The notes: a model not told the origin generated them from the sequence alone. 64,000 nucleotides of DNA from Psammoneis japonica (GCA_008632985.1 QPGO01000215.1:1-64000); one strand, 5' to 3'. Positions 14,602 through 45,740 are shown, counted from the first letter of the stretch. Numbers and translations: made by a program.

Positions 14602-15097
14602 CAAACACGTCATTTCAAGGAAAACAAACATGTCTTTTCAAGGAAAACAAACATGTCGTTTCAAGGAAAACAAGCATGTGGTTTCAAGGAAAACAAACAT
14701 GTCTTGAAAACAAACATGTCTTTTTAAGGAAAACAAACATGTCTTTTCAAGGAAAACAAGCACGTTGTTTCAAGGAAAACAAACATGTGTTTTCAAGGAA
14801 AACAAATGTGTCTTTTCAGGGAAAACAAACACGTCTTTTCAAGGAAAACAAACATGTCGTTTCAAGGAAAACAAACATGTCTTTTCAAGGAAAACAAACG
14901 TGTTGTTTCAAGGAAAAAAATGTGTCTTTTCAAGGAAAACAAACGTGTTGTTTCAAGGAAAACGAACATGTGGTTTCAAGGAAAACAAACATGTCTTTTC
15001 AATGAAAACAAACATGTCCTGAAAACAAACATGTCTTTTTAAGGAAAACAAACATGTCTTTTCAAGGAAAACATGCTTGTTTTCCTTGAAAGGACAT
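14602..15097 (+). repeat. 23-bp satellite array ending in a head-to-head inversion
   Basis: TTCAAGGAAAACATGCTTGTTTTCCTTGAA at ~15061-15090. Confidence 0.93.
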
Positions 15098-16822: not shown

Positions 16823-17945
16823 GCTGCAGTGCATCCTTGCTCTGAAGAGTGTGCGCCAATGAGGAATGTCCCCATTTGCGTGGCTGCTGCCATGTGGGTT
16901 GATCCAGCCAATGGACAGCCACGCCCACTGCCAGCCCACGAGGCTGTGTTTTTCAGGGAAAGAATGACTGACACCCTGCTGTGCCCCAGCCAACTGTGAG
17001 CAAGTGAGCTGACTGTCCACGACACCCCTCGCCAGTTTGATCCCAACAGCGCGCACTCTGTTGTTTTCCTTGACTTGAAAATCAGGGTGCATTTGCGCGC
17101 GCAAGGTGTTGCTTTGGTCTTTGACTCACACGAGCTGACTCAGGAGGACATGGAGAACCTCCCCCAGCTGGAACTGACACCATCCCTTGGATGGGAACCT
17201 TCTGCTGATGCCATGGCGCAAAAGGAGGAAGAGCGTGCATGCGTCAGTGTGTGCCAAGGACCGTCAAAGTCCAGTGGACAGCTGACAATGATGAGTGCAA
17301 CCAGGTGCATTGCTTCGGCTTGTTCGTGTCAGACATCCCATCACAATGAGAGCGTCATTGTGGGTGCAAATGACGACGATTCTCTGCATTGCTGCTTGGC
17401 TGCTCAGGCCAGTGCATCTCACAATGACACTGGGGGAGACCGGCCACATGAACGGAACAATCTGGACGTCCACCTGGATTGTGCCAAGTGGAAAGGGGTG
17501 CATGCACTGTTGACCTTGAGTCGTGCATCGACTGTCACGCCGGAGATGCTCTCCAAGAGGTGGAACATTGGTCTGACGGCTGCCAAGAACACCCTCAGAG
17601 TGACGCCCAGGCAGGGGTCTGCAACTTCAAGATCATGGGTTGAGTGAGCACTGGGTGCACGCTCACGGACAGAAGTGTTCGCGAGCCGGAGGAGCGCTTG
17701 GGCACCCAGATCAGAAAGTGCCAGTTGTCTGACTTGGAAAGCAAGGCACGCTGGGCCATGTCCTCTGACCTTTGAGTCAAATGGGCATTGGCTGATGTTG
17801 AGTTGGAGCTCAAGCAAATTGACAGGTGTCCGACAAATGTGTCGACGCCCTTGAGCTTGGGAAACAGGCCTGAACTGGATGGCTTGCCTGAGTTAAATGC
17901 CAAAACGGCCAACTGTCATCAAGGCTTTCTTGGCATGCTCCAAGT
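16823..17945 (+). pseudogene. Copia family B-like pol fragment (protease, linker, then a jump to RT)
   Basis: TVTPEMLSKRWNIGLTAAKNTLRVT, and later STPLSLGNRPELD. Confidence 0.75.
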
Positions 17946-23225: not shown

Positions 23226-24751
23226 CAAATTGGTCAGGAACTTGGGAGGAATGGGCAAAAAAGGCGGCAAAAAGGCAAGTTGACAATCTCAGAAACACGG
23301 TGTGTTCGGCTGCTGGGGCGGAGGCAATGGCCCGTAAGTTGGGTGACCAATGTGTGTGACTCGAGAGTTGCGCGCATCTCACAAGAAGATGACGGTGATG
23401 CTTTGTCTGTGCAGGCGTTGTCGCCAAGGAAGAGGGAAAGGAAAAAGAAAAGAAACTCAAGGCTGCAGTCAAGAGGAAAAAGCAAGGCAGGAAAAAGTCA
23501 AGCCATGACAAGAATGAAAAGAAAGACATCCCGATTGTGCCGACATGGGATCCGCGTGGCCCAGACACTGTCGCTGGCAGCAAACAAAGGAACAAGCAGG
23601 CACGCAAGTGGTTCTGTGATCACACCCCTGTTTGCAAAAATTGACAAACCAAGGATTGTGTGGCAGTGCAATCATGGATTGGCACATGGCAACAAGGTGG
23701 AGGCAGAAATGGTGATGTGGGCACAGTGAAAAATGGCACACATGATTCTCAACAAGTTGTCGCGACATTGGCACAGCAAACTTGCAACCAGAGGTTGGAG
23801 TGTCATTGTGCTACAACAATTTTTTGCAACATTTTGACAAATTGTCATCATGCAAATCCACACATTTTTGGCATTTCGCGCACTCTGATGCGTGTGTTGT
23901 GCACAGCATCATCACACAGCATTTGTCCAACTCTCCCTCTCATCACAGGATGGGTTGTCGCCATGTGGCACATCTGCACAGCGGACTTGCAAATTAGACC
24001 ATGCACTCCCTCTGTCAGGCAGGATGGGTTGGTGCCATGTGGCGCATCCGGCCAAGGGAGGAGTGGGTTCGAAGCCCAGCCGCCCACCCCGGATGGGGTT
24101 GGAAAGGGGCAGGCCGAGAAAGAAAAGGAGGCTTGGATTTGAGGCCAATTCGAGCCAGCAACCTCAGGAAGTGCAAAGACTCACAACCAGTCAGAACGCT
24201 GCACACTGTCCTGGCGAGTGCAGGAGGTTCTCAACAACCCAAGAGGCAAAGAAGTTGCCACTCGGCTGGCTGTTGAGTCCCTTCTCTGCGCACACATTTG
24301 GGCATGTGTTGTGCGCAGCATCGTCACACAGCATTTGTCCAACTCTCCATCTCGTCGCAGGATGGGTTGTCACCATGTGGCGCATCCGCACGGAGGACTC
24401 ATGAATTTGACCATGCACTCCCCATGTTGGGCAGGATGGGCCAGCGCCATGTGGCGCATCCGGCCAAGGGAGGAGCGGGCTCGAAGCCCAGCCGCCCACC
24501 CCAGATGGGGTTGGAAAGGGGCGGGCTGAGAAAAAAAGGAGGCTTGGATTTGAGGCCGATTCAAGCCAGCCACCTCATGAAGCACAAAGACTCGCAACCA
24601 CTCAGAACACTGCACACTGTCCTGGCGAGTGCAGGAGGTTCTCAACAACCCAAGAGGCAAAGAAGTTGCCACTCAGCCAGCTGTTGAGCCCCTTCTCCGC
24701 ACACACATTCAGGCATGTGTTGTGCACAGCATCGTCACACAGGTCCAACTG
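23226..24751 (+). repeat. Composite repeat A, 5'-truncated, with two ~412-bp units
   Basis: Unit starts recur at ~23892, ~24304 and ~24716. Confidence 0.85.
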
Positions 24752-26208
24752 AACATGTCCTTTCAAGGAAACCAAACATGTTTTCCTTGAAAAGACATGT
24801 TTGTTTTGATTGAAAAGACATGCTTGTTTTCCTTGAAACCACGTGTTTGTTTTCTTTTAAATGACACGTTTGTTTTCCTTGAAAAGACATGTTTGTTTTC
24901 TTTGAAACAACATGTTTGTTTTTCTTGAAAAGACATGTTTGTTTTCCTTGAAACGACATGTTTGTTTTCCTTGAAAAGACATGTTTGTTTTCCTTGAAAC
25001 GACACGTTTGTTTTCCTTGAAACGACACGTTTGTTTTCCTTGAAAGGACACGTTTGTTTTTCTTGAAAAGACACGCTCGTTTTCATTGAAAAGACATGCT
25101 TGTTTTCTGTGAAACAACATGTTTGTTTTCCTTGAAATCACATGTTTGTTTTTCTTGAAAACACATGTTTGTTTTCCTTGAAACGACATGTTTGTTTTCC
25201 TTGAAATGACATGTTTGCTTTCCTTAAAAATGCACCTTTGTTTTCCTTGAAAACACATGTTTGTTTTCCTTGAAACCACGTGTTTGTTTTCCTTGAAAAG
25301 ACATGTTTGTTTTCCTTGAAATGACACGTTTGTTTTCCATGAAACAACATGTTTGTTTTCCTTGAAACAACACGTTTGTTTTCCAAAACATGTTTGTTTT
25401 CTTTGAAACAACGCGTTTGTTTTCCATGAAACGACATGTTTGTTTTCCTTGAAACCACGTGTTTGTTTTCCTTGAAAACACATGTTTGTTTTCCTTGAAA
25501 CGACATGTTTGTTTTCCTTGAAATGATGTGTTTGTTTTCATTGAAAAGACCTGTTTGTTTTCCTTGAAAAGACACATTTGTTTTCTTTGAAACGAAACAT
25601 TTGTTTTCCTTGAAACGGCATGTTTGTTTTCTTTGAAAAGAAATGTTTGTTTTCAAGACATGTTTGTTTTCCTTGAAACCACATGTTTGTTTTCCTTGAA
25701 ATGACACGTTTGTTTTCCTTGAAAAGACACGCTTGTTTTCCTTAAAAAGACATGTTTGTTTTCCTTAAAAAGACATGCTTGTTTTCCATGAAACGACATG
25801 TTTGTTTTGCTTGAAACCAAATGTTTGTTTTTCTTGAAAACACATGTTTGTTTTCCTTCATACGACATGTTTGTTTTCCTTGAAACGACATGTTTGTTTT
25901 CCTTGAAAAGACTCCTTTGTTTTCTCTGAAAAGACATGCTTGTTTTCTGTGAAACAACATGTTTGTTTTCCTTGAAACCACATGTTTGTTTTCCTTGAAA
26001 CCACGTGTTTGTTTTCCTTGAAACCACGTGTTTGTTTTCCTTGAAAATGCATGTTTGCTTTCCTTGAAACGACACATTTGTTTTCCTTGAAACGACACTT
26101 TTGTTTTCCTGGAAACGACATGTTTGTTTTCCTTGAAAAGACACACTTGTTTTCCTTGAAATGACACATTTGTTTTCTCTGAAAAGACATGTTTGTTTTC
26201 CTTGAAAC
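24752..26208 (-). repeat. 23-bp satellite array
   Basis: Tandem monomers. The array continues in register after 32872. Confidence 0.97.
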
Positions 26209-26446
26209 CGAAAGAAATCCGATGTGTTGGATTTAGTTAGAGTGCTGTTGTTAGAGTGCTGTTGGCAACGGCTGGTGCTGAGCCAACCGTTGTGACGTGT
26301 TGTCGGAGGGAAGCGTTGGATTTCCCTCCAATGGCGCTCACTTGTTACGAGCAGTTGCAACAGGCCTGAGAGCATCTTTGGATCGTTGGATTGTTGTCAT
26401 GCCAGCACTGTGAGCAGCTGAGCCATTCGGCAGCTGGATTTGCTCG
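26209..26446 (+). repeat. 5' LTR
   Basis: Direct repeat of 32635-32872. Confidence 0.93.
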
Positions 26447-26461
26447 CTTCATCAGAGCCAG
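26447..26461 (+). promoter_or_regulatory. Primer-binding site (initiator tRNA-Met-like)
   Basis: CTTCATCAGAGCCAG immediately after the LTR. Resembles the canonical TGGTATCAGAGCC. Confidence 0.7.
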
Positions 26462-26751
26462 TGTCCGCACTCCGCGGTTTGGTGATGGAAAACGATGAAC
26501 AACGTGATTGTGACGGTCATGTCATGATGGCACGGTTTTGATGACGAATGCTGACCAACCTGAGGGTGTTCACCGTTGAGTGATGCCTTCGCATCAGTGT
26601 GCGCGCAAAGCAGTGGGAGACAAGGCCACATCACCGCACTCTCAAGGCCTGCGCGCATCGTCAACGCGATTTTGTGAACGTCAAAGTTTTGATGCACTTC
26701 TTCTGACACAACTGCTTTGTCTTGTGATGCTGTGATGAATCAGGTTTCACC

Positions 26752-28173
26752 ATGGCGGCAGCCCCACCGAACCCGATGGAAACGGCCCTTGCTTGGATCG
26801 GTTTCCAGCTGCCTGCTCAGCGCAACGCGATCATGACTGACATCGCCACGTTTGACGATGTCGTCGACATTGAGGAATCGGACATCGATGCGCTCGCGCA
26901 GTCTCATTCGAGGAGGACTGCTGCTGAGGGGCGTTTCCACTTTGGATTGGCTCGCACCCGTCGTCTCAAGTCCCTCATTCATTGGGTGCATGACTTCCAA
27001 CGCATCAGTGAAAATCCCACCATCGACGGTTTGGATCAGGCGCATTTTCTCGATGCGCCATCTGCTGCGTTGTCGAGGGCCGACATTCGCAGCCAGATGA
27101 GGGATCAATCTGAGTCCATTGCTCGTGAGGCATCCCCTGGACTCTTGGAGAGCGAAAAGGTCTGGGCAAAATGGAGCACCGCTTTCAAGAACATGCTCAG
27201 CACGATGCTGGGAGTCGACGGCGTTCCGTTGATTTGTGTCATGTGCGAGAACGAGGAGCCCGAGCCTGAAGGGCATGAGATTTTCATGCAGAAGTCGGTT
27301 GCATGCGCTCCACTCGAGGGTCCAGCTTTCAAAGCTGATTCTCATGCCGTCAGCCAACCAATCGTTTTGTTCACGAAAGGCACCCCAAGCAAGCAGTGGA
27401 TCAAAGAGCACCGCAACAGCCAGAGCGGTCGTCTCTGCTGCGAATCTTTGGAGAACCACTGTCAGGGCAAGGGCAACACTGCCCGTCGTGTCTCAGAAGC
27501 TGAGCGTTTGGAAAACACTCTGCATTGCAGGAGTGAATGCTCCATGACATTCGAAACGTTCGTGAACAAGCTTCAGGAGATGTTCAACATTTTCGAAGAG
27601 AATGATGAACCCAAGACGGAGGCTCAGAAGCTGCGATTGCTGTTTGACAAGGTGCAACACCAGCAGTTGCAGAACGCAGCAGAGACCCTGAAGGCGCAGA
27701 ATGAGTTCGGAGGAGGGATCAGTTTTGCTGCAGCATGCAACCATCTTGCCGCTAAAGTCGCCACTCTCCCGGAAACAGTTGCGCACCGTCGTGCAATTTC
27801 CTCTGTTGCATCCGGTGTTGGCAAGGAAGGTGATTCCATTTGCAAAGAAGATGGGTCCATTGACACCGGATTTCATAAAAATTGGCATCAATTGAGCAAG
27901 GAAGACAAGAAGAAGGTCATGGACGAGCGTGTGCGTTTGGGACTCAAGAAGAAGCCGGGTGACCTGAAGCGCCGCGCTGCATCCGTCAGATTGCTTGAAA
28001 AGAAGAATCGGAAGCTGACGCCCCAGCTTGAGCAAGCAAACTGCACTGTTTCTTCCTTGGAGACCACTGCCGGCACCGATCCCGGAAAGGTTGGTGCAGG
28101 AACTGGCAGTCAAGGCGGCAACAATGCCGGAGATGCATTTGGGGGATGCCAGGAGCGTCAGCAACGCAGCTGA
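26752..28173 (+). CDS. gag: Copia Gag-like protein (open frame, hypermutated, no Tyr)
   Basis: 473-aa ORF after the PBS: GVDGVPLI, LENHCQGKG, LENTLHC, NAGDAFGG near the C-terminus. Confidence 0.8.
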   Translation: MAAAPPNPMETALAWIGFQLPAQRNAIMTDIATFDDVVDIEESDIDALAQSHSRRTAAEGRFHFGLARTRRLKSLIHWVHDFQRISENPTIDGLDQAHFLDAPSAALSRADIRSQMRDQSESIAREASPGLLESEKVWAKWSTAFKNMLSTMLGVDGVPLICVMCENEEPEPEGHEIFMQKSVACAPLEGPAFKADSHAVSQPIVLFTKGTPSKQWIKEHRNSQSGRLCCESLENHCQGKGNTARRVSEAERLENTLHCRSECSMTFETFVNKLQEMFNIFEENDEPKTEAQKLRLLFDKVQHQQLQNAAETLKAQNEFGGGISFAAACNHLAAKVATLPETVAHRRAISSVASGVGKEGDSICKEDGSIDTGFHKNWHQLSKEDKKKVMDERVRLGLKKKPGDLKRRAASVRLLEKKNRKLTPQLEQANCTVSSLETTAGTDPGKVGAGTGSQGGNNAGDAFGGCQERQQRS

Positions 28174-28215
28174 CTCCTGAGCTGGACCCTGTCATGTGGC
28201 CTCATCCAGTTTGCA

Positions 28216-31200
28216 TTGTGGCTGCTTCATTGGGGTGGGGGCCAGCCGCATCGTTCGAAAGAAATGTTGGTTCATGGGGACTGTCGTTGCATTTGTGAAA
28301 TTGCCACTTCCACACGACGAGTCTCTGCGGCACGGACTGACACGCGTGCCACTCACGTCCGAACAGACGATCAGGTAAAGCATGGGCGACTGGAGTTGGA
28401 CTCACATGCTGACACTGCTGTTTTTGGTTCTAACTTTACCCTCTTGGGTTGCACTGGCAGAGAATGCGACGCATCACCTTACAACGAGGGATGCGAAGCC
28501 ATCAAGAGTGTCCCAATCGCATCGGCGGCCACTGCGTGGACCTCACCGGCGACGGGAGCAACGCACATCCTGGCATTCCATGAAGGGCTTTGGATGGCAG
28601 ATTCCATGGAGAATTCTCTCCTTGACCCGAATCAGATGAGGCATTTCAGTGTCACGGTTCAGGATGACCCCTGTTCCGAGTCGCCGTTGCATGTCCTTAC
28701 GGAGGACAAGGGATTTATGCTGCCCCTTGAGTTGATGGGAACTGGCATCGTTGCGGCAACTCGGACCCCCACTGAAAGGGAGCTCCAAGAGTGCCCACAC
28801 ATCCAGTTGACCTCCCAACAACCTTGGGATCCACACAACGTCAAGTTTGAGCAATCCAGACCTCGACGTTCTGTGGAGGAGGAAATGGAGTTGACTCGGT
28901 TGGTCGCAACTGTTCGGTCAAGCCCCAGCTGCGCGTTTGGTCAGGATCCTGATCACAGCAACCCTCAGACCGGGGACTGTTGTGACAGGAGACTTGTCTG
29001 CGGTGTGGACCAAGTTCAATCAAGATTGACAGCGTCAGTCCAGGTGGAAGCGGATGTTCAGATCGCGGCCACTGAGACGATCGGCTCGGAACTCGAAGAC
29101 GCACCGTCCCCGAAGACTTTCATGTCCAAGGAACGGCACAGCTCTGTCACCGCTGTTGACTTGAGCGAGTGCTGGGGCATTGGATTGAAACAAGCGACAT
29201 CAACATTGAAGAAGCCCACCCAGAAGCCAGTGAGATCGGCGCTCATGCCCCTGGCCAGGCGTTGTCGAGCGGATCGGATGTTCACGAAGCCGAAACTTCG
29301 AGGCGAGTGGGCGACTGATGCGGTCGACGGCAAAGTGGNNNNNNNNNNNNNNNNNNNNNNNNNNNNNNNNNNNNNNNNNNNNNNNNNNNNNNNNNNNNNN
29401 NNNNNNNNNNNNNNNNNNNNNNNNNNNNNNNNNNNNNNNNNNNNNNNNNNNNNNNNNNNNNNNNNNNNNNNNNNNNNNNNNNNNNNNNNNNNNNNNNNNN
29501 NNNNNNNNNNNNNNNNNNNNNNNNNNNNNNNNNNNNNNNNNNNNNNNNNNNNNNNNNNNNNNNNNNNNNNNNNNNNNNNNNNNNNNNNNNNNNNNNNNNN
29601 NNNNNNNNNNNNNNNNNNNNNNNNNNNNNNNNNNNNNNNNNNNNNNNNNNNNNNNNNNNNNNNNNNNNNNNNNNNNNNNNNNNNNNNNNNNNNNNNNNNN
29701 NNNNNNNNNNNNNNNNNNNNNNNNNNNNNNNNNNNNNNNNNNNNNNNNNNNNNNNNNNNNNNNNNNNNNNNNNNNNNNNNNNNNNNNNNNNNNNNNNNNN
29801 NNNNNNNNNNNNNNNNNNNNNNNNNNNNNNNNNNNNNNNNNNNNNNNNNNNNNNNNGGCAGGTGGCTCGGAGTGTCCCACCGGATTGGCAGTCTAATGTC
29901 ACATCACGTGTTGACGCAAACCGGTCGTGTCACATCGCGAACATCTGTTCAGCGAGTCACCAACTTGGAAGCTGGCACTCAAGAGAATCAAGATCGGTTC
30001 AAGGCTTTTGACGAGGAGATCCAGCGCAGACTTCGTGACCAAGAGTTTCCCGAAGACGAAGAGCGCAGGATCAGCCCCGAAGACTGGAAGGACCATCTTG
30101 GGTGCGACGACGAATTCCTCGACGAGTGCGATCGCGTCATCAGTTCTGAAGATGTGTTGAACAAGGACGACGACAAGAAAGACGAGGAAGCCTCCCCGGA
30201 AGCGGCGGATTGGGGTCATCTCAACATGGAATTGGCTTTGCCGAGAGATGATGATGGTCCCGAGTTCGCGCGTGTAACGAAGAGGTTGAGGGATGCGAGT
30301 GGCATTCCCATTGGGACAGCCAACGACAACCCAATCCTAGACACTCGAATGTGTCAGGTGGAGTGTCCCGATGGTCACACTGCAGCACTTTCAGCTGACT
30401 CTGTTGCCATGAACATGTTTGCACAGATTGACGAGGACGGAAATCGGCATGTTCTGTTCGATGAGATTACAGACTTCCGTGCGAATGGGGACGTCCCGGA
30501 ATCCGATTTCTTTGAAACTGAGCAAGGCAACAAGAGGCAGCGCAGGACCACGAAAGGATGGGAACTCTTGTTCCAATGGAAGGATGGCAGTGCCACTTGG
30601 GTTGACCCAAAGGACGCGAAGGAAGGACTCCCTGTCCAGGTCGCCGAGCTCGCCATCCAACGCAAGATCTCGAAGGAGCCGGCGTTTGCTTGGTGGGTTC
30701 CGCACGCAATGAGGACCCGCAAGCGTTCCATTGTGAAGGTCAAGTCGAAGCATTGGTTGAGAACCCACAAATTTGGCACGCGAATTCCCAAGACTGTGAA
30801 GGAGGCACTGGAGCTCGATCGTGCGAACAGCAACACCTTGTGGCATGACGCCATTTGCTTGGAAATGAAGAATGTTCGAGTTGCGTTCGACAAGTTCGAG
30901 GGGGACGAAACGGAGCTGCCTCCTGGGTGCCAACAAATCGATTGTCACATGATTTTTGACATCAAGTTGGGAGAGAACTTTCGGCGCAAGAGTGGGATGG
31001 TTGCGGGTGGTCACATGACTGATGCCCCAACTGCCATTGCCTGCTCCTCAGTTGTTTCCAGGGATTCGGTGAGGATTGCCCTTGCACTTGCCGCGCTTGA
31101 TGACTCACAAGTCTTTGCCTGCGACATCCAGAATGCCTGCTTGACAGCGCCGTGCCGAGAGAAAATTTGGACTCGTGCCGGTGAAGAGTTTGGCGCAGAA

Positions 31201-32466
31201 CGCGGTGAGATCATGATTGCAGTCAGGGCACTCTACGGATTGAAGAGCTCCGGCGCGGCATTCAGGGCCTTCCTTGCGGAGACGCTTTGTGATCTAGGAT
31301 GCAAGCCCAACAAGGCTGATCCCAATGTTTGGATGAGGCCAGCAGTGAAGCCAGACGGATTCGAGTGCTACGAGTGCATCTTGGTGTACGTCGACGACTT
31401 GCTGTCGATTGGCCATGAGCCAATGAAGACCATGGATGGCATCAAGTCGAAGTTCAAGCTCAAAGACGACAAAGCAGCGGAGCCTGAATCCCACTTGGGC
31501 GCCAAGTTGTCGAAGATGGACCTTGCTGATGGTGCTGCCTGCTGGACGATGTCAGCAGAAGATTGCTGCAAGGCGGCGGTCCGGAATGTTGAGGACAAAT
31601 TGGCCAAGGAAGGAAAACGGCCACCGAGCAAAGCATGCACACCTTCAAGCAGCGGACACAAGCCAGAGTTGGACACTTCGGGCGAACTGGATGCAGAAGG
31701 CCTCAACTGCTGCCAAGAGCTGATTGGCGTTTTGATTTGGGCCGTGGAGTTGGGCAGGGTCGATGTCATTTTGGAAGTGTCAAGTGTGTCGGCTCACCTT
31801 GCCTTGCCGCGCATTGGTCACTTGGAACAGGCATTGCACATCTTTGCATGCCTTGAACAGGTCCCAAAGCACCGGGTGGTGTTCGATCCTGCGCATCCGG
31901 TCATCGACGAGTCTAGGTTCAAGGAGTGCGATTGGCTCGACTTCTGCCGAGACGCGCAAGAGGCGATTCCCCCCAACATGCCACCACCTCGAGGTGACGT
32001 TGTGTCTGCTCATTGTTTCGTGGATGCCAACCATGCTGGTGATGCATCAACTCGCCGCAGTCATGCAGGTGTTCTGACATTCCTGTGCCGAGCACCCATC
32101 ATCTGGTGTTCGAAGAGACAGAACACCGTGGAGACTGGTGCTTTTGGCGCCGAGATCGTGGCACTCAAGGTTGCGGTGGAACTTGTTGAAGGTCTGAGGC
32201 ACAAGCTTCGAATGTTTGGAGTTCCTGTTGAAGGTTCTACGAACGTGTTCTGTGACAATGAAGCAGTGTGCAAGAATTGCTCCATCCCGGAGTCTGCTCT
32301 CAAGAAGAAGCATCATTCCATTGCATGCCATCGCAACAGGGAAGCTGTTGCTGCGGGGACTGTTCGCCCAGCAAAGGAGGATGCGGAAACCAACCTTGCG
32401 GATTTGTTCACAAAGGTTGTGACTTCGATTTGTCACAATTTCCTGTTGGACAAGTTCGCTCATTGA
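28216..32466 (+). CDS. pol: Copia Pol polyprotein (protease, integrase mostly in the N gap, RT, RNase H); probably non-functional
   Basis: LDSHADT, MVAGGH, DIQNACL, ALYGLKSSG, YVDD, FVDANHAG, FCDN, NLADLFTK. Spans the gap at 29339-29856, so frame continuity is unverified. Confidence 0.9.
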   Translation: MWLLHWGGGQPHRSKEMLVHGDCRCICEIATSTRRVSAARTDTRATHVRTDDQVKHGRLELDSHADTAVFGSNFTLLGCTGRECDASPYNEGCEAIKSVPIASAATAWTSPATGATHILAFHEGLWMADSMENSLLDPNQMRHFSVTVQDDPCSESPLHVLTEDKGFMLPLELMGTGIVAATRTPTERELQECPHIQLTSQQPWDPHNVKFEQSRPRRSVEEEMELTRLVATVRSSPSCAFGQDPDHSNPQTGDCCDRRLVCGVDQVQSRLTASVQVEADVQIAATETIGSELEDAPSPKTFMSKERHSSVTAVDLSECWGIGLKQATSTLKKPTQKPVRSALMPLARRCRADRMFTKPKLRGEWATDAVDGKVXXXXXXXXXXXXXXXXXXXXXXXXXXXXXXXXXXXXXXXXXXXXXXXXXXXXXXXXXXXXXXXXXXXXXXXXXXXXXXXXXXXXXXXXXXXXXXXXXXXXXXXXXXXXXXXXXXXXXXXXXXXXXXXXXXXXXXXXXXXXXXXXXXXXXXXXXXXXXXXXXXXXXXXXXXXXXGRWLGVSHRIGSLMSHHVLTQTGRVTSRTSVQRVTNLEAGTQENQDRFKAFDEEIQRRLRDQEFPEDEERRISPEDWKDHLGCDDEFLDECDRVISSEDVLNKDDDKKDEEASPEAADWGHLNMELALPRDDDGPEFARVTKRLRDASGIPIGTANDNPILDTRMCQVECPDGHTAALSADSVAMNMFAQIDEDGNRHVLFDEITDFRANGDVPESDFFETEQGNKRQRRTTKGWELLFQWKDGSATWVDPKDAKEGLPVQVAELAIQRKISKEPAFAWWVPHAMRTRKRSIVKVKSKHWLRTHKFGTRIPKTVKEALELDRANSNTLWHDAICLEMKNVRVAFDKFEGDETELPPGCQQIDCHMIFDIKLGENFRRKSGMVAGGHMTDAPTAIACSSVVSRDSVRIALALAALDDSQVFACDIQNACLTAPCREKIWTRAGEEFGAERGEIMIAVRALYGLKSSGAAFRAFLAETLCDLGCKPNKADPNVWMRPAVKPDGFECYECILVYVDDLLSIGHEPMKTMDGIKSKFKLKDDKAAEPESHLGAKLSKMDLADGAACWTMSAEDCCKAAVRNVEDKLAKEGKRPPSKACTPSSSGHKPELDTSGELDAEGLNCCQELIGVLIWAVELGRVDVILEVSSVSAHLALPRIGHLEQALHIFACLEQVPKHRVVFDPAHPVIDESRFKECDWLDFCRDAQEAIPPNMPPPRGDVVSAHCFVDANHAGDASTRRSHAGVLTFLCRAPIIWCSKRQNTVETGAFGAEIVALKVAVELVEGLRHKLRMFGVPVEGSTNVFCDNEAVCKNCSIPESALKKKHHSIACHRNREAVAAGTVRPAKEDAETNLADLFTKVVTSICHNFLLDKFAH

Positions 32467-32622
32467 ATTGGCGGCAAATGGGGTTTGGATTTTGGGAATC
32501 GGGTCGGTGGTGATTTTCTTCCCCAGTGAGGGTTTGCACCATGGCCAGCACGGAGTGTTGACATGGTTGATTGCATTGGTTGAATTGTGCCTGTCAAGCA
32601 CGCCCTTGGCTTGTTAGAAACA

Positions 32623-32634
32623 TTTCAAGGGGAC
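32623..32634 (+). promoter_or_regulatory. Polypurine tract
   Basis: TTTCAAGGGGAC directly before the 3' LTR. Confidence 0.7.
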
Positions 32635-32872
32635 CGAAAGAAATCCGATGTGTTGGATTTAGTTAGAGTGCTGTTGTTAGAGTGCTGTTGGTGACGGCTG
32701 GTGCTGAGCCAGCCGTTGTGACGTGCCATCGGAGGGAAGCGTTGGATTTCCCTCCAATGGCGCTCACTTGTTACCAGCAGTTGCAACAGGCCCAAGAGTG
32801 TCTTTGGATTGTCAGATTGTTGTCACACCAGTGCTGTGAGCAGCTGAGCCATTCGGCAGCTGGATTTGCTCA
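32635..32872 (+). repeat. 3' LTR
   Basis: Direct repeat of 26209-26446, ending in CA. Confidence 0.93.
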
Positions 32873-34834
32873 AAACGACATGTTTGTTTTCCTTGAAAAG
32901 ACATGTTTGTTTTCCTTGAAAAGACATGTTTGTTTTCCTTGAAATGACAGGTTTGTTTTCCTTGAAACCACATGTTTGTTTTTCTTGAAATGACACCTTG
33001 GTTTTCTCTGAAAAGATGTGTTTGTTTTCCTTGAAACGACACGTTTGTTTTTCTTGAAATGACACGTTTGTTTTCTTGAAAAGATGTGTTTGTTTTCTTT
33101 GAAACAACATGTTTGTCTTTGAAAGACATGTTTGTTTTCCCTGAAACGACACGTTTGTTTTCCTTGAAAAGACACGTTTGTTTTCCTTGAAAAGACATGT
33201 CAGTTTTCTTTGAAATGACACGTTTGTTTTTCTTGAAACAACATGTTTGTTTTCGTTGAAAAGACATGTTTGTTTTCTCTGAAACCACATGTTTGTTTTC
33301 CCTGAAACAACACATTTGTTTTCTTTGAAAAGACATGTTTGTTTTCCTTGAAAAAACATGTTTGTTTTCCTTGAAAAGACATGTTTGTTTGCCTTGAAAC
33401 AACACGTTTGTTTTCCTTGAAAAGACACGTTTGTTTTCCTTGAAAAGACATGTTTGTTTTTTTGAAAAGACATGCTTGTTTTCCATGAAACGACATGTTT
33501 GCTTTCCTTGAAACCACATGTTTGTTTTCTTTGAAAAAACATGTTTGTTTTCCTTGAAACAACATGTTTGTTTTCCTTGAAACGACATGTTTGTTTTCCT
33601 TGAAACGATGCGCTTGTTTTCCTTGAAAAGACATGATTCGTTTCCTTGAAAAAACATGTTTGTTTTCTTTGAAATGTCACATTTGTTTTCCTTGAAAAGA
33701 CATGTTTGTTTTCTTTGAAACGACATGTTTGTTTTTTTTTTGAAAAGACATGTTTGTTTTCTTTGAAATGACATGTTTGTTGAGGTGACTTTGAAACAAC
33801 ATGTCTGTTTTCTTTGAAACAAGGTGTTTGTTTTCTTTGAAAAGACATGCTTGTTTTCCTTGAAATGACGTGTTTTTTCCCCCTGAAATGACATGTTTGT
33901 TTTCCTTGAAACCACATGTTTGTTTTCTTTAAAATGACACGTTTGTTTTCCTTGAAAAGACATGTTTGTTTTCTTTGAAACAACACGTTTGTTTTTCTTG
34001 AAAAGACATGTTTGTTTTCCTTGAAAAGACATGTTTGTTTTCCTTGAAACCACATGTTTGTTTTCCCTGAAACGACACTTTTGTTTTCCTTGAAACGACA
34101 TGTTTGTTTTCCTTGAAAAGACATGTTTGTTTTCCTTGAAAAGACATGCTTGTTTTCCATGAAACGACATGTTTGCTTTCTTTGAAACCATTTGTTTGTT
34201 TTCCTTGAAAACACATGTTTGTTTTCCTTGAAACGACACGTTTGTTTTCCTTGAAACGACATGTTTGTTTTCCTTGAAAAGACATGTTTGTTTTCCTTGA
34301 AAAGGCATTTTTTCCCTTGAAGCAACATGTTTGTTTTCCTTGAAACGACATGTTTGTTTTCCTTGAAAAGACATGTTTGTTTTCAAGACATGTTTGTTTT
34401 CCTTGAAACGACACGTTTGTTTTCCTTGAAACGACATGTTTGTTTTCCTTGAAATGACGTGTTTGTTTTCCTTGACAAGACATGTTTGTTTTCTTTGAAA
34501 AGACATGTTTGTTTTCTTTGAAACCACATGTTTGTTTTCCTTGAAACCACATGTTTGTTTTCCTTGAAACAACGTGTTTGTTTTCCTTGAAAAGACATGT
34601 TTGTTTTTCTTGAAATGACACGTTTGTTTTCCACAGGTTTGTTTTCCTTGAAACCACATGTTTGTTTTTCTTGAAATGACACCTTGGTTTTCTCTGAAAA
34701 GATGTGTTTGTTTTCCTTGAAATGACATGTTTGTTTTTCTTGAAATGAAATGTTTGTTTTCCTTGAAAAGATGTGTTTGTTTTCTTTGAAACAACATGTT
34801 TGTCTTTGAACGACATGTTTGTTTTTCCTGAAAC
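32873..34834 (-). repeat. 23-bp satellite array
   Basis: Tandem monomers. Confidence 0.97.
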
Positions 34835-34898
34835 GAGAGCCAATCGCCAACAGCACACAAGCTGCCTGTGTTTGTGACAGCACACCAGCATTTGTTCA
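34835..34898 (-). repeat. Copia family B LTR stub
   Basis: Reverse complement of 42079-42142. Confidence 0.8.
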
Positions 34899-34964
34899 GA
34901 ACAACATGTTTGTTTTCCTTGAAACAACATGTTTGTTTTCCTTGAAAAGACACGTTTGTTTTCA

Positions 34965-35354
34965 GACGCGCTCCAGCCCTGGGTGGGACTCCGTGTGACA
35001 TTGGGCCCACAGAATTCTACGTGCGAGCTCCGCAGCACAAGAATTTAATTGGTGGATGCATTTGTCTTCAACATCAAACAATCGGCCAAGTTTGTGGTGC
35101 AACTGTGCCTCTTGCCACTCGACGTTTTTGCAAATGCGTCTGCCCCACGCGATTCTTGAGACATTGTAGAATTGCGCTGCAACAAAAAATGTCAAAAGTT
35201 TTTGGATGGATCGCTCAATGAGTGTGCCGTAAAATGACACAAAACATCAAAAAAATGGCATGGAAATCTACGTGCACAACATGCGACGAGATTCAAAAAA
35301 CTGTCGATGTCACAGTTCAGCAGTGCGAGGTCCCACCTAGACCTGGAACGCGTC
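34965..35354. mobile_element. MITE family 1, TSD TTCA
   Basis: TTCA|GACGCGCTCCAGCCCTGGGTGGGAC ... GTCCCACCTAGACCTGGAACGCGTC|TTCA. Confidence 0.88.
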
Positions 35355-37572
35355 TTCAAGACATGTTTGGTTTCCTTGAAAAGACACGCTTGTTTTCCCT
35401 GAAACCACATGTTTGGTTCCTTGAAAACACATGTTTGTTTTCATTGAAAAGACATGTTTGATTTCCTTGAAACAACAAGTTTGTTTTCCTTGAAAACACA
35501 TGTTTGTTTTCCTTGAAATGACACGTTTGTTTTCCTTGAAATGACATGTTTGTTTTCCTTAAAAAGACATGTTTGTTTTCCTTGAAACAACATGTTTGTT
35601 TTCCTTGAAACCACATGTTTGTTTTCCTTGAAATGACATGTTTGTTTTCCTTGAAATGACATGTTTGTTTTCATTGCAAAGACATGTTTGTTTTCTTTGA
35701 AACAAAATGTTTGTTTTCCTTGAAAAGACATGTTTGTTTTCATTGAAACCACAAGTTTGTTTTCATTGAAAAGACATGTTTGATTTCCTTGAAACAACAT
35801 GTTTGTTTTCCTTGAAAAGACACATTTGTTTCCCTTGAAACAACATGTTTGTTTTCCTTGAAATGGCACGTTTGTGTTCCTTGAAACGACATGTTTGTTT
35901 TCCTTGAAAACACACAATTGTTTTCCTTGAAACAACATGATTGTTTTCCTTGAAATGGCATGTTTTTTTCTTTGAAACGACGTGTTTATTTTCCTTGAAA
36001 TGACATGTTTGTTTTCCTTGAAAAGACATGTTTGTTTTCTTTGAAACCACATGTTTGTTTTCCTTGAAACCACATGTTTGTTTTCCTTGAAAAGACACAT
36101 TTGTTTTCTTTGAAACAACATGTTTGTTTTCCTTGAAATGGCATGTTTGTTTTCCTTGAAACGACATGTTTGTTTTCCTTGAAAACACACATTTGTTTTC
36201 CTTGAAACAACATGATTGTTTTCCTTGAAATGGCATGTTTGTTTCTTTGAAACGACGTGTTTGTTTTCCTTGAAACAACATGTTTGTTTTTCTTGAAAAG
36301 ACATGTTTGTTTTCCTTGAAACCACATGTTTGTTTTCCTTAAAATGACACATTTGTTTTCCTTGAAATGACATGTTTGTTTTCATCAAAAAGACATGTTT
36401 GTTTTCTTTGAAACGAAATGTTTGTTTTCCTTGAAAAGACATGTTTGTTTTCCTTGAAAAGACATGTTTGTTTTCCTTGAAACAACACGTTTGTTTTCCT
36501 TGAAACGACACGTTTGTTTTCCCTGAAACGACATGTTTGTTTTCCCTGAAAAGACACATTTGTTTTCCTTGAAAAAACACGTTTGTTTTCCTTGAAAACG
36601 CATGTTTGTTTTCCTTGAAACGACATGTTTGTTTTCAAGACATGTCTGTTTTCCTTGAAACGACATGTTTGTTTTTCTTGAAATGACACGTTTGTTTTCT
36701 CTGAAAAGACATGTTTGTTTTCCTTGAACGACATTTTTGTTTTCCTTGAAAAGACATGTTTGTTTTCCTTGAAAAGACATGTTTGTTTTCCTTGAAATGA
36801 CACGTTTGTTTTCCTTGAAACCACATGTTTGTTTTTCATGAAATGACACCTTGGTTTTCTCTGAAAAGATGTGTTTGTTTCCCTTGAAATGACACGTTTG
36901 TTTTTCTTGAAACGACATGTTTGTTTTCCTTGAAAAGATGTGTTTGTTTTCTTTGAAACAACATGTTTGTCTTTAAACGACATGTTTGTTTTCCCTGAAA
37001 CGACACGTTTGTTTTCCTTGAATGGACACATTTGTTTTCCTTGAAAAGACATGTTTGTTTTCTTTGAAACAACACGTTTGTTTTTCTTGAAACGACACAT
37101 TTGTTTTCTTTGAAAACACATGTTTGTTTTCTCTGAAACCACATGTTTGTTTTCCCTGAAACAACACATTTGTTTTCCTTGAAAAGACGTGTTGGTTTTC
37201 CTTGAAAAAACATGTTTGTTTTCCTTGAAAAGACATGTTTGTTTTCCTTGAAACGACACGTTTGTTTTCCTTGAAAAGACATGTTTGTTTTCCTTGAAAA
37301 GACATGCTTGTTTTCTTTGAAAAGACATGCTTGTTTTCCATGAAACGACATGTTTGCTTTCCTGGAAACCACACGTTTGTTTTCCTTGAAAACACACATT
37401 TGTTTTCCTTGAAACAACACGTTTGTTTTCCTTGAAAAGACATGTTTGTTTTCCTTGAAAAGACATGTTTGTTTTCCTTGAAACCATGTGTTTGTTTTCC
37501 TTGAAACCGCGCGTTTGTTTTCCTTGAAATGACACGTTTGTTTTCCTTGAAAAGACATGTTTGTTTTCTTTG
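35355..37572 (-). repeat. 23-bp satellite array
   Basis: Tandem monomers. Confidence 0.97.
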
Positions 37573-39095
37573 ACTTCAAATCCTTGAGAGGAACCCAGGA
37601 TGCAGTCCCATCCTTCCATTTGACTTGCAGGTCCCAGCCTGCAGTCGTCCTCCCAGGAGCAAGCCTGCCAGTCTTGGTCGTTGTGCACCCGTCATTGGCC
37701 GTTGCAGCACGTTGCAATGCACAGCTGCCAATGAGAGTTGATGCATCATGGCAACGTGCTGCAATTTAAATGTCACAAAGGTTGTGACAAAAACAACCTT
37801 TTGTCTGCATGCGTGCTGCATCATGAATTTTTGGCGGAGTGGTTCATTGCAACCATTGGGCAGGAGGCCAGGGGTTCGAAACCCTGAGTGGGAGTTGTCT
37901 GCAGCAACGTTGGTCACTGTCGAGTGTGCAAAACTCTGTGCAGTTCTTTGTGTTCCTTTGCGCACACCCACACTGTTCCGCCAAAACCGCGCAGTTTCAG
38001 TGCACGTCAGCAAAGAGCCGCGTGGACGCGTGACACATGGGGAGGAGTGCAGTGTGCAGCTGCTGACAAGAGCCAATGCATCACGGCGATGTGTTGCAAT
38101 TTAAATGTCACAAAGGTCATGATCTGGCGGGCATTCCCTTCAGAGTCGATCTGAGTGAATGGGTTCTCTGCAACTGTGTCAGCAGCATGGGAGTCGGTGG
38201 ATCCGTCAGGGAATTCCATGTCGCATGTCCTCAAGTCGTTCCCAGTGCCAACAGGAACCCCGTCACCATCTCACTTGTGCGCAATGACCCCATCATGAGT
38301 CAGCTCGCCTCCTCGTGGTGACATGACTTGAGCTGTGAGACATTCATCCAGCCCTTCCAGGGTGTGCTCATCAGCTTCCGGTTTGGAAGCGTCGGGTTCC
38401 ACAGGTTTAACGGCATCGTCCCATTTGTCCATGAAGTCGTCAGGGAGTTCAGGGAAGTCAGCACTGGCGCCCTTTTCCGTGATGCTGAGCCGTTTGATCA
38501 AAGCTTGATCGACCAATGCAAGATCCGTCTGGATCACCAGAGTTTTAAGGTCATCCTCTGGCGTGGCCCAGACATCCTTCCGAATGATGGGTTTGCCTGA
38601 TTCGGGCAAAACAATGATTGTCAGCTGCGCCAAGCCAATGGCCAGTGCACTTCTTTTTGTGTGGGAACTCCACCACAGGCACGCAGCAATGCACAGGTTG
38701 ACGCCAATCAAAGAGAGAGAGGGAAGAGATGTCGGGTGTTGAACCTGTCACCTCCTCTTCTGGGACTCATCCTCCCACATCTGACACACTGGCCGCAATC
38801 ATGCGTCGGATGTCACATGTCCATTTGGCGCTGTGGGGCCAAAGTCGTCTGTGAGCACCAGCCCGGCGCAGAGTCACATGGACTCTTTTCTTCAACTCAC
38901 AAATGGGTGCCTCGGCCAGGTTCTGCCAGGGGCTGCATGGGGTGGACACCTCCTGGTGCATCCTGCATTCCCTGCAGATCTCCTTGGTCTGGCCTTCCGC
39001 CATTTCCGGGGTGCCATCCGACACAAGGACCTGCGGTGCGCCAACGTCATGCACAAATGACATGACAGCATCTGGGTGGTCCTGTTTCCTCTTCC
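37573..39095 (-). pseudogene. Copia family B integrase-to-RT linker fragment
   Basis: SDGTPEM, PWQNLAE, EFPDG, GWDLQVKWKDGTASWVPLKDLK. Interrupted at ~37695-38118 by unrelated sequence containing a ~40-bp direct repeat. Confidence 0.8.
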
Positions 39096-41622
39096 AAGGA
39101 AAAAAACATGTCGTTTCAAGGAAAACAAATGTGTCTTTTCAAGGAAAACAAACATGTCATTTCAAGGAAACAAACATGTGGTTTCAAGGAAAACAAACAT
39201 GTCTTTTCAAGGAAACAAACATGTTGTTTCAAGGAAAATGAACACGTTGTTTCAAAGAAAACAAGCGCGCCATTTCAAGGAAAACAATCATGTTGTTTCA
39301 AGGAAAACAATTGTGTGTTTTCAAGGAAAACAAACATGTCATTTCAAGGAAAACAAACGCGCCATTTCAAGGAAAACAAACATGTTGTTTCAAGGAAAAC
39401 AAATGTGTCTTTTCAAGGAAAACAAACATGTTGTTTCAAGAAAACAAACATGTTGTTTCAAGGAAAACAAATGTGTCTTTTCAAGGAAACAAACATGTTG
39501 TTTCAAGGAAAACAAACGTGTCTTTTCAAGGAAAACAAACATGTGGTTTCAAGGAAAACAAACTTGTCGTTTCAAGGAAATCAAACATGTCTTTTCAATT
39601 GAAACAAACATGTCGTTTCAAGGAAAACAAACATGTTGTTTCAAAGAAAACAAACATGTCTTTTCAAGGAAAACAAACATGTCTTTTCAAGAAAACAAAC
39701 ATTTCGTTTCAAAGAAAACAAACATGTCTTTTTAATGAAAACAAACATGTCGTTTCAAGGAAAACAAACGTGTCATTTTAAGGAAAACAAACATGTGGTT
39801 TCAAGGGAAAAAAAACATGTCTTTTCAAGGAAAACAAACATGTCTTTTCAGAGAAAACAAACGTGTCATTTCAAAGAAAACAAACATGCCATTTCAAGGA
39901 AAACAATCATGTTGTTTCAAGGAAAACAAACATGTGGTTTCAAGGAAAACAAACATGTCGTTTCAAGGAAAACAAATGTGTCTTTTCAAGGAAAACAAAC
40001 ATGTCGTTTCAAGGAAAACAAACATGTTGTTTCAAGGAAAACAAGTGTGTCTTTTCAAGGAAAACAAACATGTCGTTTCAAGGAAAACAAACGTGTCGTT
40101 TCAAGGAAATCAAACATGTCTTTTCAATGAAAACAAACNNNNNNNNNNNNNNNNNNNNNNNNNNNNNNNNNNNNNNNNNNNNNNNNNNNNNNNNNNNNNN
40201 NNNNNNNNNNNNNNNNNNNNNNNNNNNNNNNNNNNNNNNNNNNNNNNNNNNNNNNNNNNNNNNNNNNNNNNNNNNNNNNNNNNNNNNNNNNNNNNNNNNN
40301 NNNNNNNNNNNNNNNNNNNNNNNNNNNNNNNNNNNNNNNNNNNNNNNNNNNNNNNNNNNNNNNNNNNNNNNNNNNNNNNNNNNNNNNNNNNNNNNNNNNN
40401 NNNNNNNNNNNNNNNNNNNNNNNNNNNNNNNNNNNNNNNNNNNNNNNNNNNNNNNNNNNNNNNNNNNNNNNNNNNNNNNNNNNNNNNNNNNNNNNNNNNN
40501 NNNNNNNNNNNNNNNNNNNNNNNNNNNNNNNNNNNNNNNNNNNNNNNNNNNNNNNNNNNNNNNNNNNNNNNNNNNNNNNNNNNNNNNNNNNNNNNNNNNN
40601 NNNNNNNNNNNNNNNNNNNNNNNNNNNNNNNNNNNNNNNNNNNNNNNNNNNNNNNNNNNNNNNNNNNNNNNNNNNNNNNNNNNNNNNNNNNNNNNNNNNN
40701 NNNNNNNNNNNNNNNNNNNNNNNNNNNNNNNNNNNNNNNNNNNNNNNNNNNNNNNNNNNNNNNNNNNNNNNNNNNNNNNNNNNNNNNNNNNNNTTTCAAG
40801 GAAAACAAACATGTCGTTTCAAGGAAAACAAACATGCCATTTCAAGGAAAACAAACATGTGTTTCAAGAAAACAAATGTGTCTTTTCAAGGAAAACAAAC
40901 ATGTGGTTTCAAGGAAAACAAACATGTGGTTTCAAGGAAAACAAACATGTCTTTTCAAGGAAAACAAACATGTCATTTCAAGGAAAACAANNNNNNNNNN
41001 NNNNNNNNNNNNNNNNNNNNNNNNNNNNNNNNNNNNNNNNNNNNNNNNNNNNNNNNNNNNNNNNNNNNNNNNNNNNNNNNNNNNNNNNNNNNNNNNNNNN
41101 NNNNNNNNNNNNNNNNNNNNNNNNNNNNNNNNNNNNNNNNNNNNNNNNNNNNNNNNNNNNNNNNNNNNNNNNNNNNNNNNNNNNNNNNNNNNNNNNNNNN
41201 NNNNNNNNNNNNNNNNNNNNNNNNNNNNNNNNNNNNNNNNNNNNNNNNNNNNNNNNNNNNNNNNNNNNNNNNNTTTCAAAGAAAACAAACATGTCTTTTC
41301 AATGAAAACAAACATGTCATTTTAAGGAAAACAAACATGTCATTTCAAGGAAAACAAACATGTGGTTTCAAGGAAAACAAACATGTTGTTTCAAGGAAAA
41401 CAAACATGTCTTTTTAAGGAAAACAAACATGTCATTTCAAGGAAAACAAACGTGTCATTTCAAGGAAAACAAACATGTGTTTTCAAGGAAAACAAACTTG
41501 TCGTTTCAAGGAAATCAAACATGTCTTTTCAATGAAAACAAACATGTGTTTTCAAGGAAAACAAACATGTGGTTTCAGGGAAAACAAGCGTGTCTTTTCA
41601 AGGAAACCAAACATGTCTTGAA
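39096..41622 (+). repeat. 23-bp satellite array with two assembly gaps
   Basis: Tandem monomers. N runs at 40139-40793 and 40991-41273. Confidence 0.93.
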
Positions 41623-45000: not shown

Positions 45001-45568
45001 CCATGTCTGCACACCATCCGAACGGAAAGTCCGGAAGAAAGCCCCTTGGCTCAAGTTCCCTGCTGTCAAGGGACGGCTCTACTCCGACCAGATGTTTTCA
45101 AAGGTCAAATCGACACATGGCAAGATGGGAGGAAGCGCACTTGCCAACGGAAGAGGGTGTGACAGGTTCCATCCTTGGAAGAGGAAGCAGGACCACCCAG
45201 ATGCCGTCATGTCATTTGTGCATGACGCTGGCACACCGCAGGTCCTTGTGTCGGATGGCGCGCCGGAAATGGTGGAAGGCCAGACCAAGGAGATCTGCAA
45301 GGAATGCAGGATGCACCAGGAGGTGTCCACTCCATGCAGCCCCTGGCAGAACCTGGCCGAGGCATCCATTCGTGAGTTGAAGAAAAGAGTCCGTGTGACT
45401 CTGCACTGGACTGGCGCTCACAGACGACTTTGGTCCCACAGCGCCAAATGGACATGTGACATCTGACGCATGGTTGCAACCAGTGTGTCAGACATGGGAG
45501 GACGAGTCCCAGAAGAGGAGGTGACAGGTTCAACACCCGACATCTCTTCCCTCTCTCTCTTTGATTGG
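42079..45568 (+). mobile_element. Copia family B, 5' half (LTR 42079-42262, PBS, gag ~42806-43990, pol 44090-45466), truncated by satellite
   Basis: TG...CA LTR, PBS CTTTGTCAGAGCCAG, GVPLIC gag motif, DSHADT, integrase D-D-E-like YSDQ / SDGA / NLAE. Confidence 0.88.
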
Positions 45569-45740
45569 TGAAAACAAACATGTCTTTTCAAGGAAAACAA
45601 ACATGTCGTTTCAAGGGGAAAAAAATGTCTTTTCAAGGAAAACAAACATGTCGTTTCAAGGAAAACAAACATGTGTTTTCAAGGAAAACAAACATGTCAT
45701 TTCAAGGAAAACAAACGTGTCTTTTCAAGGAAAACAAACA
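45569..45740 (+). repeat. 23-bp satellite array
   Basis: Tandem monomers. Confidence 0.9.

Follow-up and report, generated by a model that had tools for sequence, protein, structure and literature searches.

Two long terminal repeats (LTRs) of one retrotransposon that differ from each other mainly by exchanging CA for TG at the same places raise the question of what was written at those places before, and when, and on which nucleic acid, the change took place. This situation is found in a stretch of 64,000 nucleotides from Psammoneis japonica (GCA_008632985.1, QPGO01000215.1:1-64000; hereafter the window), where a copia-type LTR retrotransposon at 26207-32871 sits inside a 23-bp satellite. 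We conclude, with a probability of roughly 0.85, that a process specific for the TpA step, acting on duplex DNA after the element had inserted, produced the CA/TG differences between its LTRs. The evidence comes from the LTR pair itself, from the codons of the pol frame that lies between the LTRs, and from the composition of the whole window.

Differences between the two LTRs

Repeat search and BLAST returned a single direct-repeat pair for this element, 239 nt long, gap-free and 92.5% identical (coordinates of all features are collected in Table 1; a position in the 5' LTR plus 6426 gives its partner in the 3' LTR). According to the alignment and the list of positions, 18 of the 239 positions differ, 17 of these 18 by transition, and 14 of them pair up as seven adjacent CA/TG doublets. 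The initial annotation had listed seven reciprocal doublets and about five isolated single differences; all seven were recovered in exactly the contexts given, and the singles number four or five depending on the LTR end chosen, the fifth (26446 G, 32872 A) being counted only when the LTR is extended by one base, as is done in the 238-nt version that starts at 26209. The single at 26384 is a CG/TG difference, the sole one in the LTR pair. Each LTR carries both outcomes, with three CA and four TG in the 5' copy and four CA and three TG in the 3' copy, and the outcome switches between doublets as little as 6 nt apart. The first 59 nt of the two LTRs are identical, nine CG are common to both, four TA are kept in both, and no position of the pair retains TA in a single LTR with CA or TG as its partner.

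Clustering of this kind is not produced by chance. When 18 substitutions, 17 of them transitions, were placed at random in the LTR in 200000 trials, 160137 trials gave no doublet at all, the maximum of four was reached three times, and five or more never occurred. Likewise, not one CA/TG doublet was present among the 162 differences in 27 terminal direct-repeat pairs taken from related copia elements at 80 metagenome loci, 14 of the 27 being identical overlaps (13 of 123-170 nt and one of 4748 nt) that are uninformative for this comparison.

Ancestral state of the doublets

The rates of change at TpA and at CpG were measured within the same element, with conserved codons as markers of the ancestral state. 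For this purpose pol was aligned with 45 homologs over its reverse transcriptase (RT) and RNase H part and with 39 long homologs over the upstream part, and a column was counted as conserved tyrosine where at least 70% of the homologs have Tyr. At the 22 such columns the element has Cys (TGY) 11 times, His (CAY) six times, Tyr three times and Leu twice; in other words, of 20 conserved tyrosine codons, 17 now read TGY or CAY. The 45 homologs show no Cys and at most one His at the 20 conserved-tyrosine columns of their alignment (A2). The 11 TG and six CA outcomes give no significant strand bias (our binomial estimate). Conserved His and Cys in the RT/RNase H part are themselves kept, at 9/9 and 6/7 columns, respectively. 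Among 56 replacements at this part's conserved columns, manual reading finds 30 that amount to a single TA to TG or TA to CA change; 13 of these 30 span a codon border, the new G being preceded by T (Thr to Ala, Ile to Val, Ser to Gly, Asn to Asp, Lys to Glu and Arg to Gly). Conserved CGN arginine codons, by comparison, are kept in 21 of 24 cases, the other three now being CAN. Because 17/20 tyrosine codons have changed against 3/24 CGN arginine codons, the doublets are more likely to derive from TpA than from CpG, which bears out the earlier argument from the tyrosine codons. The accompanying claim of a near-saturating process over a low background also agrees with the codons, since all 17 tyrosine codons of pol outside a TACG context are mutated.

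These rates can be carried over to the LTR pair. With 17-30 CpG sites in the pair and 0.125 as the rate per copy, CpG decay is expected to give 0.13-0.23 discordant double hits, and the probability of seven or more is 1e-10 to 6e-9; even at a rate of 0.3 it is at most 5e-4. A TpA model with 0.85 per copy and 14-22 ancestral TpA predicts 4.6-7.9 discordant sites. Judged by these sequence comparisons, the seven LTR doublets were very probably TpA.

The obvious competitor is CpG decay, in which the seven sites would once have been methylated CpG whose 5-methylcytosine was deaminated on the top strand to give TG or on the bottom strand to give CA. Its two products are precisely TG and CA, and it is certainly active nearby: the older repeat pairs of the window differ mostly by CG/TG and CG/CA (the A3-A4 pair has 21 CpG singles and six doublets), columns 6-7 of 548 satellite monomers read TG 414, CG 68, CA 48 and TA 0, and at 6 of 19 positions compared in sequencing reads (see below) other family copies read CG against CA or TG in the element. 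A discordant doublet, however, requires a hit in both LTRs at one site, and CpG decay leaves more singles than double hits, as in A3-A4; the nine shared CG, one single and seven doublets of the LTR pair have the opposite shape. CpG decay has moreover been slow in this element (three of 24 CGN arginine codons changed, CG observed/expected ratio [O/E] of 0.84, about 0.2 doublets expected), and it leaves unexplained both the loss of tyrosine to Cys or His at 17 of 20 codons and the TA O/E of 0.05 in the window. We therefore regard CpG ancestry of the doublets as very improbable.

Mutation in place, on both strands, after insertion

Reverse transcription leaves an element with two LTRs that are identical at integration, and the doublets therefore arose after insertion. 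Both outcomes are present within each LTR, so that editing of one strand of RNA or complementary DNA (cDNA) is disfavored. The satellite and an element with terminal inverted repeats (TIRs), neither of which is a retroelement, are TA-poor as well; it is hence genomic DNA that the process mutates in place, and its reach goes beyond the retrotransposition cycle. The first reading of this DNA had argued from the LTRs against single-strand RNA editing and for mutation of double-stranded DNA, a view that the TA-poor non-retroelement sequences now join both outcomes in supporting.

The loss of TA indeed extends over the whole window, which contains 212 TA against 4447 expected from base composition (O/E 0.05), with CA and TG raised to 1.55 and 1.57 and a CG ratio of 0.65. 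The depletion shows in all 2-kb bins (1-15 TA against 72-196 expected), in the copia element alone (27 against 325) and in the satellite DNA (43 against 1919). In the related copia elements at the 80 metagenome loci the TA O/E is 0.54-1.05; none of the 80 falls below 0.54, in a search whose intact-motif patterns are biased against mutated copies. Some of these loci are low in CG (L040 0.27, L061 0.38, L054 0.43).

Nested insertions in the window form an age series in which TA is lost well before CG: the TIR element, the copia element and a repeat family that the TIR element interrupts (family A) show successively lower ratios (Table 1). The TIR element has 34-nt terminal inverted repeats that are 91% complementary, is inserted in a family A copy and keeps 19 TA. 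Two TA/CA sites and one CG/TG site distinguish its arms, and the element has the look of a more recent insertion, part-way through TA erasure.

Editing during retrotransposition deserves consideration nonetheless, namely an ADAR-like or APOBEC-like activity on RNA or single-stranded cDNA that would have made the LTRs unequal already at integration. The scheme of LTR synthesis would allow editing late in reverse transcription to leave the two copies unequal, and the A that ADARs edit is preferably preceded by U (Mettrop et al., bioRxiv 2026, 10.64898/2026.01.13.699255). Editing on one strand nevertheless predicts one outcome per LTR, whereas each has both, switching within 6 nt. The codons of pol agree: by our own count the order of Cys and His along the 17 mutated tyrosine codons makes 11 runs against about 8.8 expected, which leaves no strand-coherent tracts. 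The satellite and the TIR element, which never passed through RNA, are also TA-poor. Such editing is, in our estimation, exceedingly unlikely.

In sum, G:C replaces a single A:T pair of the TpA step and both pairs of one step are never changed (none of 13 repeat pairs has a TA/CG doublet), the strand is picked for each site and each copy, and the rate depends on the flanking bases. Neither TA to TG nor TA to CA can create an in-frame stop under the genetic code, and long open frames therefore persist while the protein is ruined; the 1430-codon pol frame survives the loss of 17 of 20 tyrosines because these changes make no stops. Over the copia element alone there are 44 frames of at least 80 codons.

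Context dependence

A TpA model with a uniform rate was dropped in favor of a context-dependent one, the sites changed in one LTR only being absent and four TA being kept in both. The three tyrosine codons that are kept (31234, 31369 and 31387) are all TAC followed by G, and a following G is found in 3/3 kept against 0/17 mutated tyrosine codons (Fisher p 8.8e-4, post hoc). Of the TA kept in the LTRs, one is in TACG (26346; 32772 in the 3' LTR) and three are in TTAG. Nor is survival of TA random over the whole window: 58 of the 212 surviving TA lie within TTAA, ATAT is not found once, and 39 of the 212 kept TA adjoin CG, as against 867 of 12143 CA or TG steps. These sequence contexts suggest that susceptibility of TpA may be nearly all-or-none, and an adjoining CpG, possibly when methylated, may protect it.

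Family copies in sequencing reads

Further copies of the family were sought in Logan contigs of sequencing run X1, whose library type is not on record and which may be the source sample of the assembly; in runs X2 and X3 no contigs align to the element, and no RNA run was listed as containing it. The run X1 contigs contain 47% of the sampled 31-letter words of the element, and 1033 contigs align to it at a likeness of at least 80%, 257 of them at 99% or more, with word depths of 60-800. From the 40 listed of 648 single-position differences, 19 were read in context, none of them in the LTR. Four reciprocal CA/TG doublets against other family copies were found among these 19 positions, as well as two places where other copies have TA and the element has TG or CA.

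The reads bear on two rival explanations. The first is a sequencing artefact, in which modified thymine in the TpA steps of repeats would be misread as C on the read strand and the consensus would then settle on either CA or TG by chance. Such an artefact could accommodate a TA loss that is both extreme and symmetric, as well as the opposite calls made in the same contexts of the two LTRs, and for neither the assembly nor run X1 is the read technology on record. Independent resolution of the two letters, however, would write CG as often as CA or TG, whereas the CG O/E is 0.65 and TA/CG doublets are missing from all 13 repeat pairs. In addition, the run X1 contigs that are at least 99% alike at depths of 60-800 suggest accurate reads repeating the same letters, the young TIR element in the same region retains its 19 TA, and the same spectrum has been obtained by Illumina sequencing in mutation-accumulation lines of another alga, according to the available text of the preprint (10.64898/2026.01.13.699255). 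We consider it highly improbable that the doublets are artefactual.

The second is exchange between copies, whereby one LTR would have been overwritten by gene conversion or recombination with a differently resolved copy; erasure of TpA would then be real and not necessarily subsequent to insertion. The family is multi-copy, as the 1033 contigs indicate, other copies carry reciprocal doublets, and the LTRs are identical over their first 59 nt. Against this, the doublets alternate in direction across 140 nt with only four other differences, and a diverged donor usually brings more; the target-site duplication brackets the pair as it does for a single insertion; and mutation has gone equally far in the pol frame that the LTRs enclose. 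This explanation too appears very unlikely.

The element and its surroundings

The element has what is expected of a Ty1/copia retrotransposon, namely an LTR pair, a target-site duplication, and a gag-pol frame with a copia-type reverse transcriptase. These features, together with a purine tract directly before the 3' LTR, confirm that the two repeats had been correctly taken as a genuine LTR pair. The 5' LTR proper probably starts at 26209, the preceding two bases being common with the purine tract by chance. The gag-like frame, for which Pfam gave no match, and the pol frame are in the same phase with one stop between them. A Pfam scan placed RVT_2 (PF07727) in the 3' half of pol with 52.2 bits against a cut-off of 31.6. 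Database searches with pol returned 2675 homologs; among the matches listed, the best has 65% identity, PF07727 is present in all 120 homologs, and the closest named relative is from the diatom Fragilaria crotonensis. One of the window's three stretches that read N falls within the pol frame, at the expected position of the integrase.

Table 1. Features of the window, with positions counted from its first letter
Feature	Position	Strand	Remarks
Copia element	26207-32871		TA O/E 0.08, CG O/E 0.84
5' LTR	26207..26445	+	repeat search, alignment, BLAST
3' LTR	32633..32871	+	92.5% identical to 5' LTR
Doublet 1	26266-67		CA in 5' LTR, TG in 3' LTR
Doublet 2	26301-02		TG in 5' LTR, CA in 3' LTR
Doublet 3	26367-68		TG in 5' LTR, CA in 3' LTR
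Doublet 4	26373-74		CA in 5' LTR, TG in 3' LTR
Doublet 5	26387-88		TG in 5' LTR, CA in 3' LTR
Doublet 6	26400-01		TG in 5' LTR, CA in 3' LTR
Doublet 7	26406-07		CA in 5' LTR, TG in 3' LTR
Span of the seven doublets in 5' LTR	26266..26407
Single differences (5'/3')	26286 A/G; 26300 T/C; 26349 G/C; 26384 C/T		26300 adjoins doublet 2
TA kept in both LTRs	26234, 26238, 26252, 26346 (span 26234..26347)		first three in TTAG context, 26346 in TTACG context; partners +6426
gag-like open frame	26728..28170	+	481 codons; one in-frame stop, 28171-28173, closes frame
pol open frame	28174..32463	+	1430 codons; RVT_2 reverse transcriptase domain in 3' half
Target-site duplication, left copy GAAAC	26204..26208		right copy AAAAC, 32872-32876; one mismatch
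Alternative target-site duplication AAAC	26205-26208 and 32873-32876		perfect, 4 nt
Purine tract AAGGGGA	32627..32633	+	polypurine-tract position, directly before 3' LTR
23-bp satellite array left of insertion	24765..26208		resumes on right side, 32872-34816
Satellite arrays, examples	608-1880, 8573-10567, 24765-26220, 32845-37592, 46578-48208
TIR element	49561-50384		824 bp; TA O/E 0.32, CG O/E 1.13
Repeat family A	1-607, 1881-3234, 4425-6023, 15088-16825, 23245-24764, 48519-51111		interrupted by TIR element; TA O/E 0.00-0.02, CG O/E 0.50-0.52
Repeat family B	10579-13158, 42106-45569
Open frame, right-hand region	57859-59307	-	483 codons; no Pfam match
Open frame, right-hand region	60993-63368	+	792 codons; no Pfam match
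Stretches reading N	29339-29856, 40139-40793, 40991-41273		first within pol frame

The rest of the window consists of satellite and other repeats. The 23-bp satellite makes up about 17.5 kb in both orientations, and blocks of repeat families A and B, 90-97% alike and without a Pfam domain, are interspersed with it. Within families A and B, most differences between copies are CG/TG and CG/CA; CA/TG doublets are few and differences that involve TA nearly absent. Duplication of these blocks probably took place once their TA was gone. Repeat pairs of the window were accordingly rejected as replicates of the LTR test, TA having gone before duplication and CpG transitions dominating; the satellite was rejected as a replicate set for TpA on similar grounds, its monomer columns 6-7 reflecting CpG decay.

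Outside the satellite there are 88 frames of at least 150 codons, spread over all six frames, an abundance to be expected of DNA that has almost lost TAA and TAG and in which the mutation process makes no new stops. A Pfam scan of 62 of these 88 found no recognisable host gene, the sole match above cut-off being RVT_2; a match to LbR_Ice_bind was dismissed at 24 bits against a cut-off of 30, in a frame that is partly satellite. The right-hand non-satellite region, which holds the two long frames of Table 1, has a TA O/E of 0.07, like the rest of the window.

Proposed course of events

The observations would be accounted for as follows. A copia-type element would have inserted in the 23-bp satellite with two identical LTRs, after which a TpA-specific process would turn one of the two A:T pairs into G:C at nearly every susceptible TpA. 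A hit on the top-strand A would give TG and a hit on the bottom-strand A would give CA, and since a single hit removes the TpA, no second hit could follow at the same site. With the strand independent for each site and each LTR, about half of the ancestral TpA would become discordant, which are the seven doublets, and the rest concordant and invisible. The process would be much faster than CpG decay and background substitution, and slowed or blocked at TACG and where T stands on the 5' side or A on the 3' side.

Several points weigh against this interpretation. At a uniform TpA rate of 0.85, about 4-6 sites changed in only one LTR are predicted, and none is present (P 0.002-0.016), which the interpretation can accommodate only if context makes susceptibility almost all-or-none. 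The context rule is incomplete, one doublet lying in a TTAG-like context that matches the three kept sites. We infer the ancestral state at the seven LTR sites from rates and codons and not from a direct reading of another LTR copy, a 38-letter LTR pattern with CA, TG and CG steps left open as YR having found no match in metagenome contigs. CpG decay is active in the window and dominates the differences between older repeat pairs and between satellite monomers, and the CG of other copies at six of the 19 run X1 positions points the same way. Run X1 speaks only weakly against a sequencing artefact, as it may be the same sample. Lastly, a process aimed at repeats and a property of the whole genome cannot be told apart in a window that has no recognisable host gene.

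As to chemistry, an adenine deaminase acting on T-A may be responsible, by analogy with what has been proposed for Bigelowiella natans. Oxidised thymine mispairing with G, a suggestion of our own from general chemistry, would leave the same pattern. Because TpA is its own reverse complement, the sequence does not separate adenine deamination from thymine oxidation.

Comparison with known systems

Several processes resemble the one described here. The hyperediting of retroelements and viruses by APOBEC3 and ADAR has single-stranded cDNA or RNA as its substrate, and the traces it leaves are strand-coherent runs. Repeat-induced point mutation (RIP), known from Neurospora and other fungi, is an in-place hypermutation of repeated DNA that affects both strands, ruins transposons and creates stop codons. 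Like RIP, the changes seen here are transitions at one dinucleotide in repeated DNA, in place and on both strands, which ruin transposons; unlike RIP, the direction is reversed, TpA being destroyed, and no stops are created. RIP turns C:G into T:A mostly at CpA and hence makes TpA (RIPCAL, as far as its available text goes), whereas in the window TA is depleted 20-fold and it is CA and TG that are raised. CpG decay is similar in its products, TG and CA, and in hitting a symmetric dinucleotide on either strand; it differs in substrate, which here is TpA, and was far slower in this element (3/24 arginine against 17/20 tyrosine codons). Hyperediting by APOBEC3 or ADAR also inactivates retroelements, by deamination, and the preference of ADAR for U before the target A, as given in the available text of the preprint (10.64898/2026.01.13.699255), recalls the TpA step; in our case, however, the strand that is hit changes from one site to the next, the hits date from after integration, and they also affect DNA outside retroelements.

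The closest parallel is that of Bigelowiella natans, and what follows is based on the available parts of the preprint. In mutation-accumulation lines, de novo changes in giant-virus and virophage DNA integrated in the genome were almost only A-to-G and T-to-C, all of them at TpA; the products are TpG or CpA according to strand, and the process is local to non-host DNA (Mettrop et al. 2026, 10.64898/2026.01.13.699255). The long-term signature is TpA depletion with CpA and TpG enrichment, low-TpA coding sequences are enriched in reverse transcriptase and transposase domains, and an ADAT2-like adenine deaminase has been proposed (10.64898/2026.01.13.699255). Our window agrees in the transitions (17/18 differing LTR positions), in TpA depletion with CA/TG excess, and in changes that fall in TpA steps, as read from the tyrosine codons and the 30/56 replacements and as reconstructed for the LTR sites. 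It differs in that B. natans is a chlorarachniophyte, whereas the closest named relative of our element is from a diatom, and in that the targets are an LTR retrotransposon, a satellite and other repeats. Erasure is near complete here (TA O/E 0.05-0.08) against 0.45 in the B. natans giant-virus region, and our evidence is historical, from an LTR pair and codons, while in B. natans the mutations were observed de novo. The available parts of that preprint do not describe the context effects seen here, namely that TACG is kept and ATAT gone. The TpA-erasure signature had thus already been described, this preprint being the sole published account that the literature searches turned up, and the LTR pair adds a second lineage and the order of events in time. 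Full-text literature searches found no description of TpA erasure in diatoms, and the passages on RIP and DNMT4 in PMC9998398 do not mention it.

Implications

An LTR pair offers a natural before-and-after experiment: at insertion, which is a known event, its copies did not differ. The present pair shows TA erasure taking place after integration, on duplex DNA, and saturating while ordinary divergence stayed below 2%. Two practical consequences follow for such genomes: dating by LTR divergence is badly inflated unless TpA-derived sites are masked, and long open reading frames in such regions are no evidence of live genes. The near-complete erasure and its context rules, with TACG protected and ATAT always lost, offer handles on the enzyme and on a link with cytosine methylation.

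The process may be aimed at repeats as a genome defence. We lean, by a small measure, toward the broader proposal that diatoms carry a dedicated, repeat-aimed DNA mutator that would work as RIP in reverse, erasing TpA in silenced duplex DNA on either strand, outrunning CpG decay many-fold, blocked at TACG with its presumably methylated CpG, and making no stops, so that frames would stay long and open though dead. Should a chlorarachniophyte and a diatom share such a system, this form of genome defence may be of long standing and widespread in the SAR (stramenopiles, alveolates and Rhizaria) supergroup.

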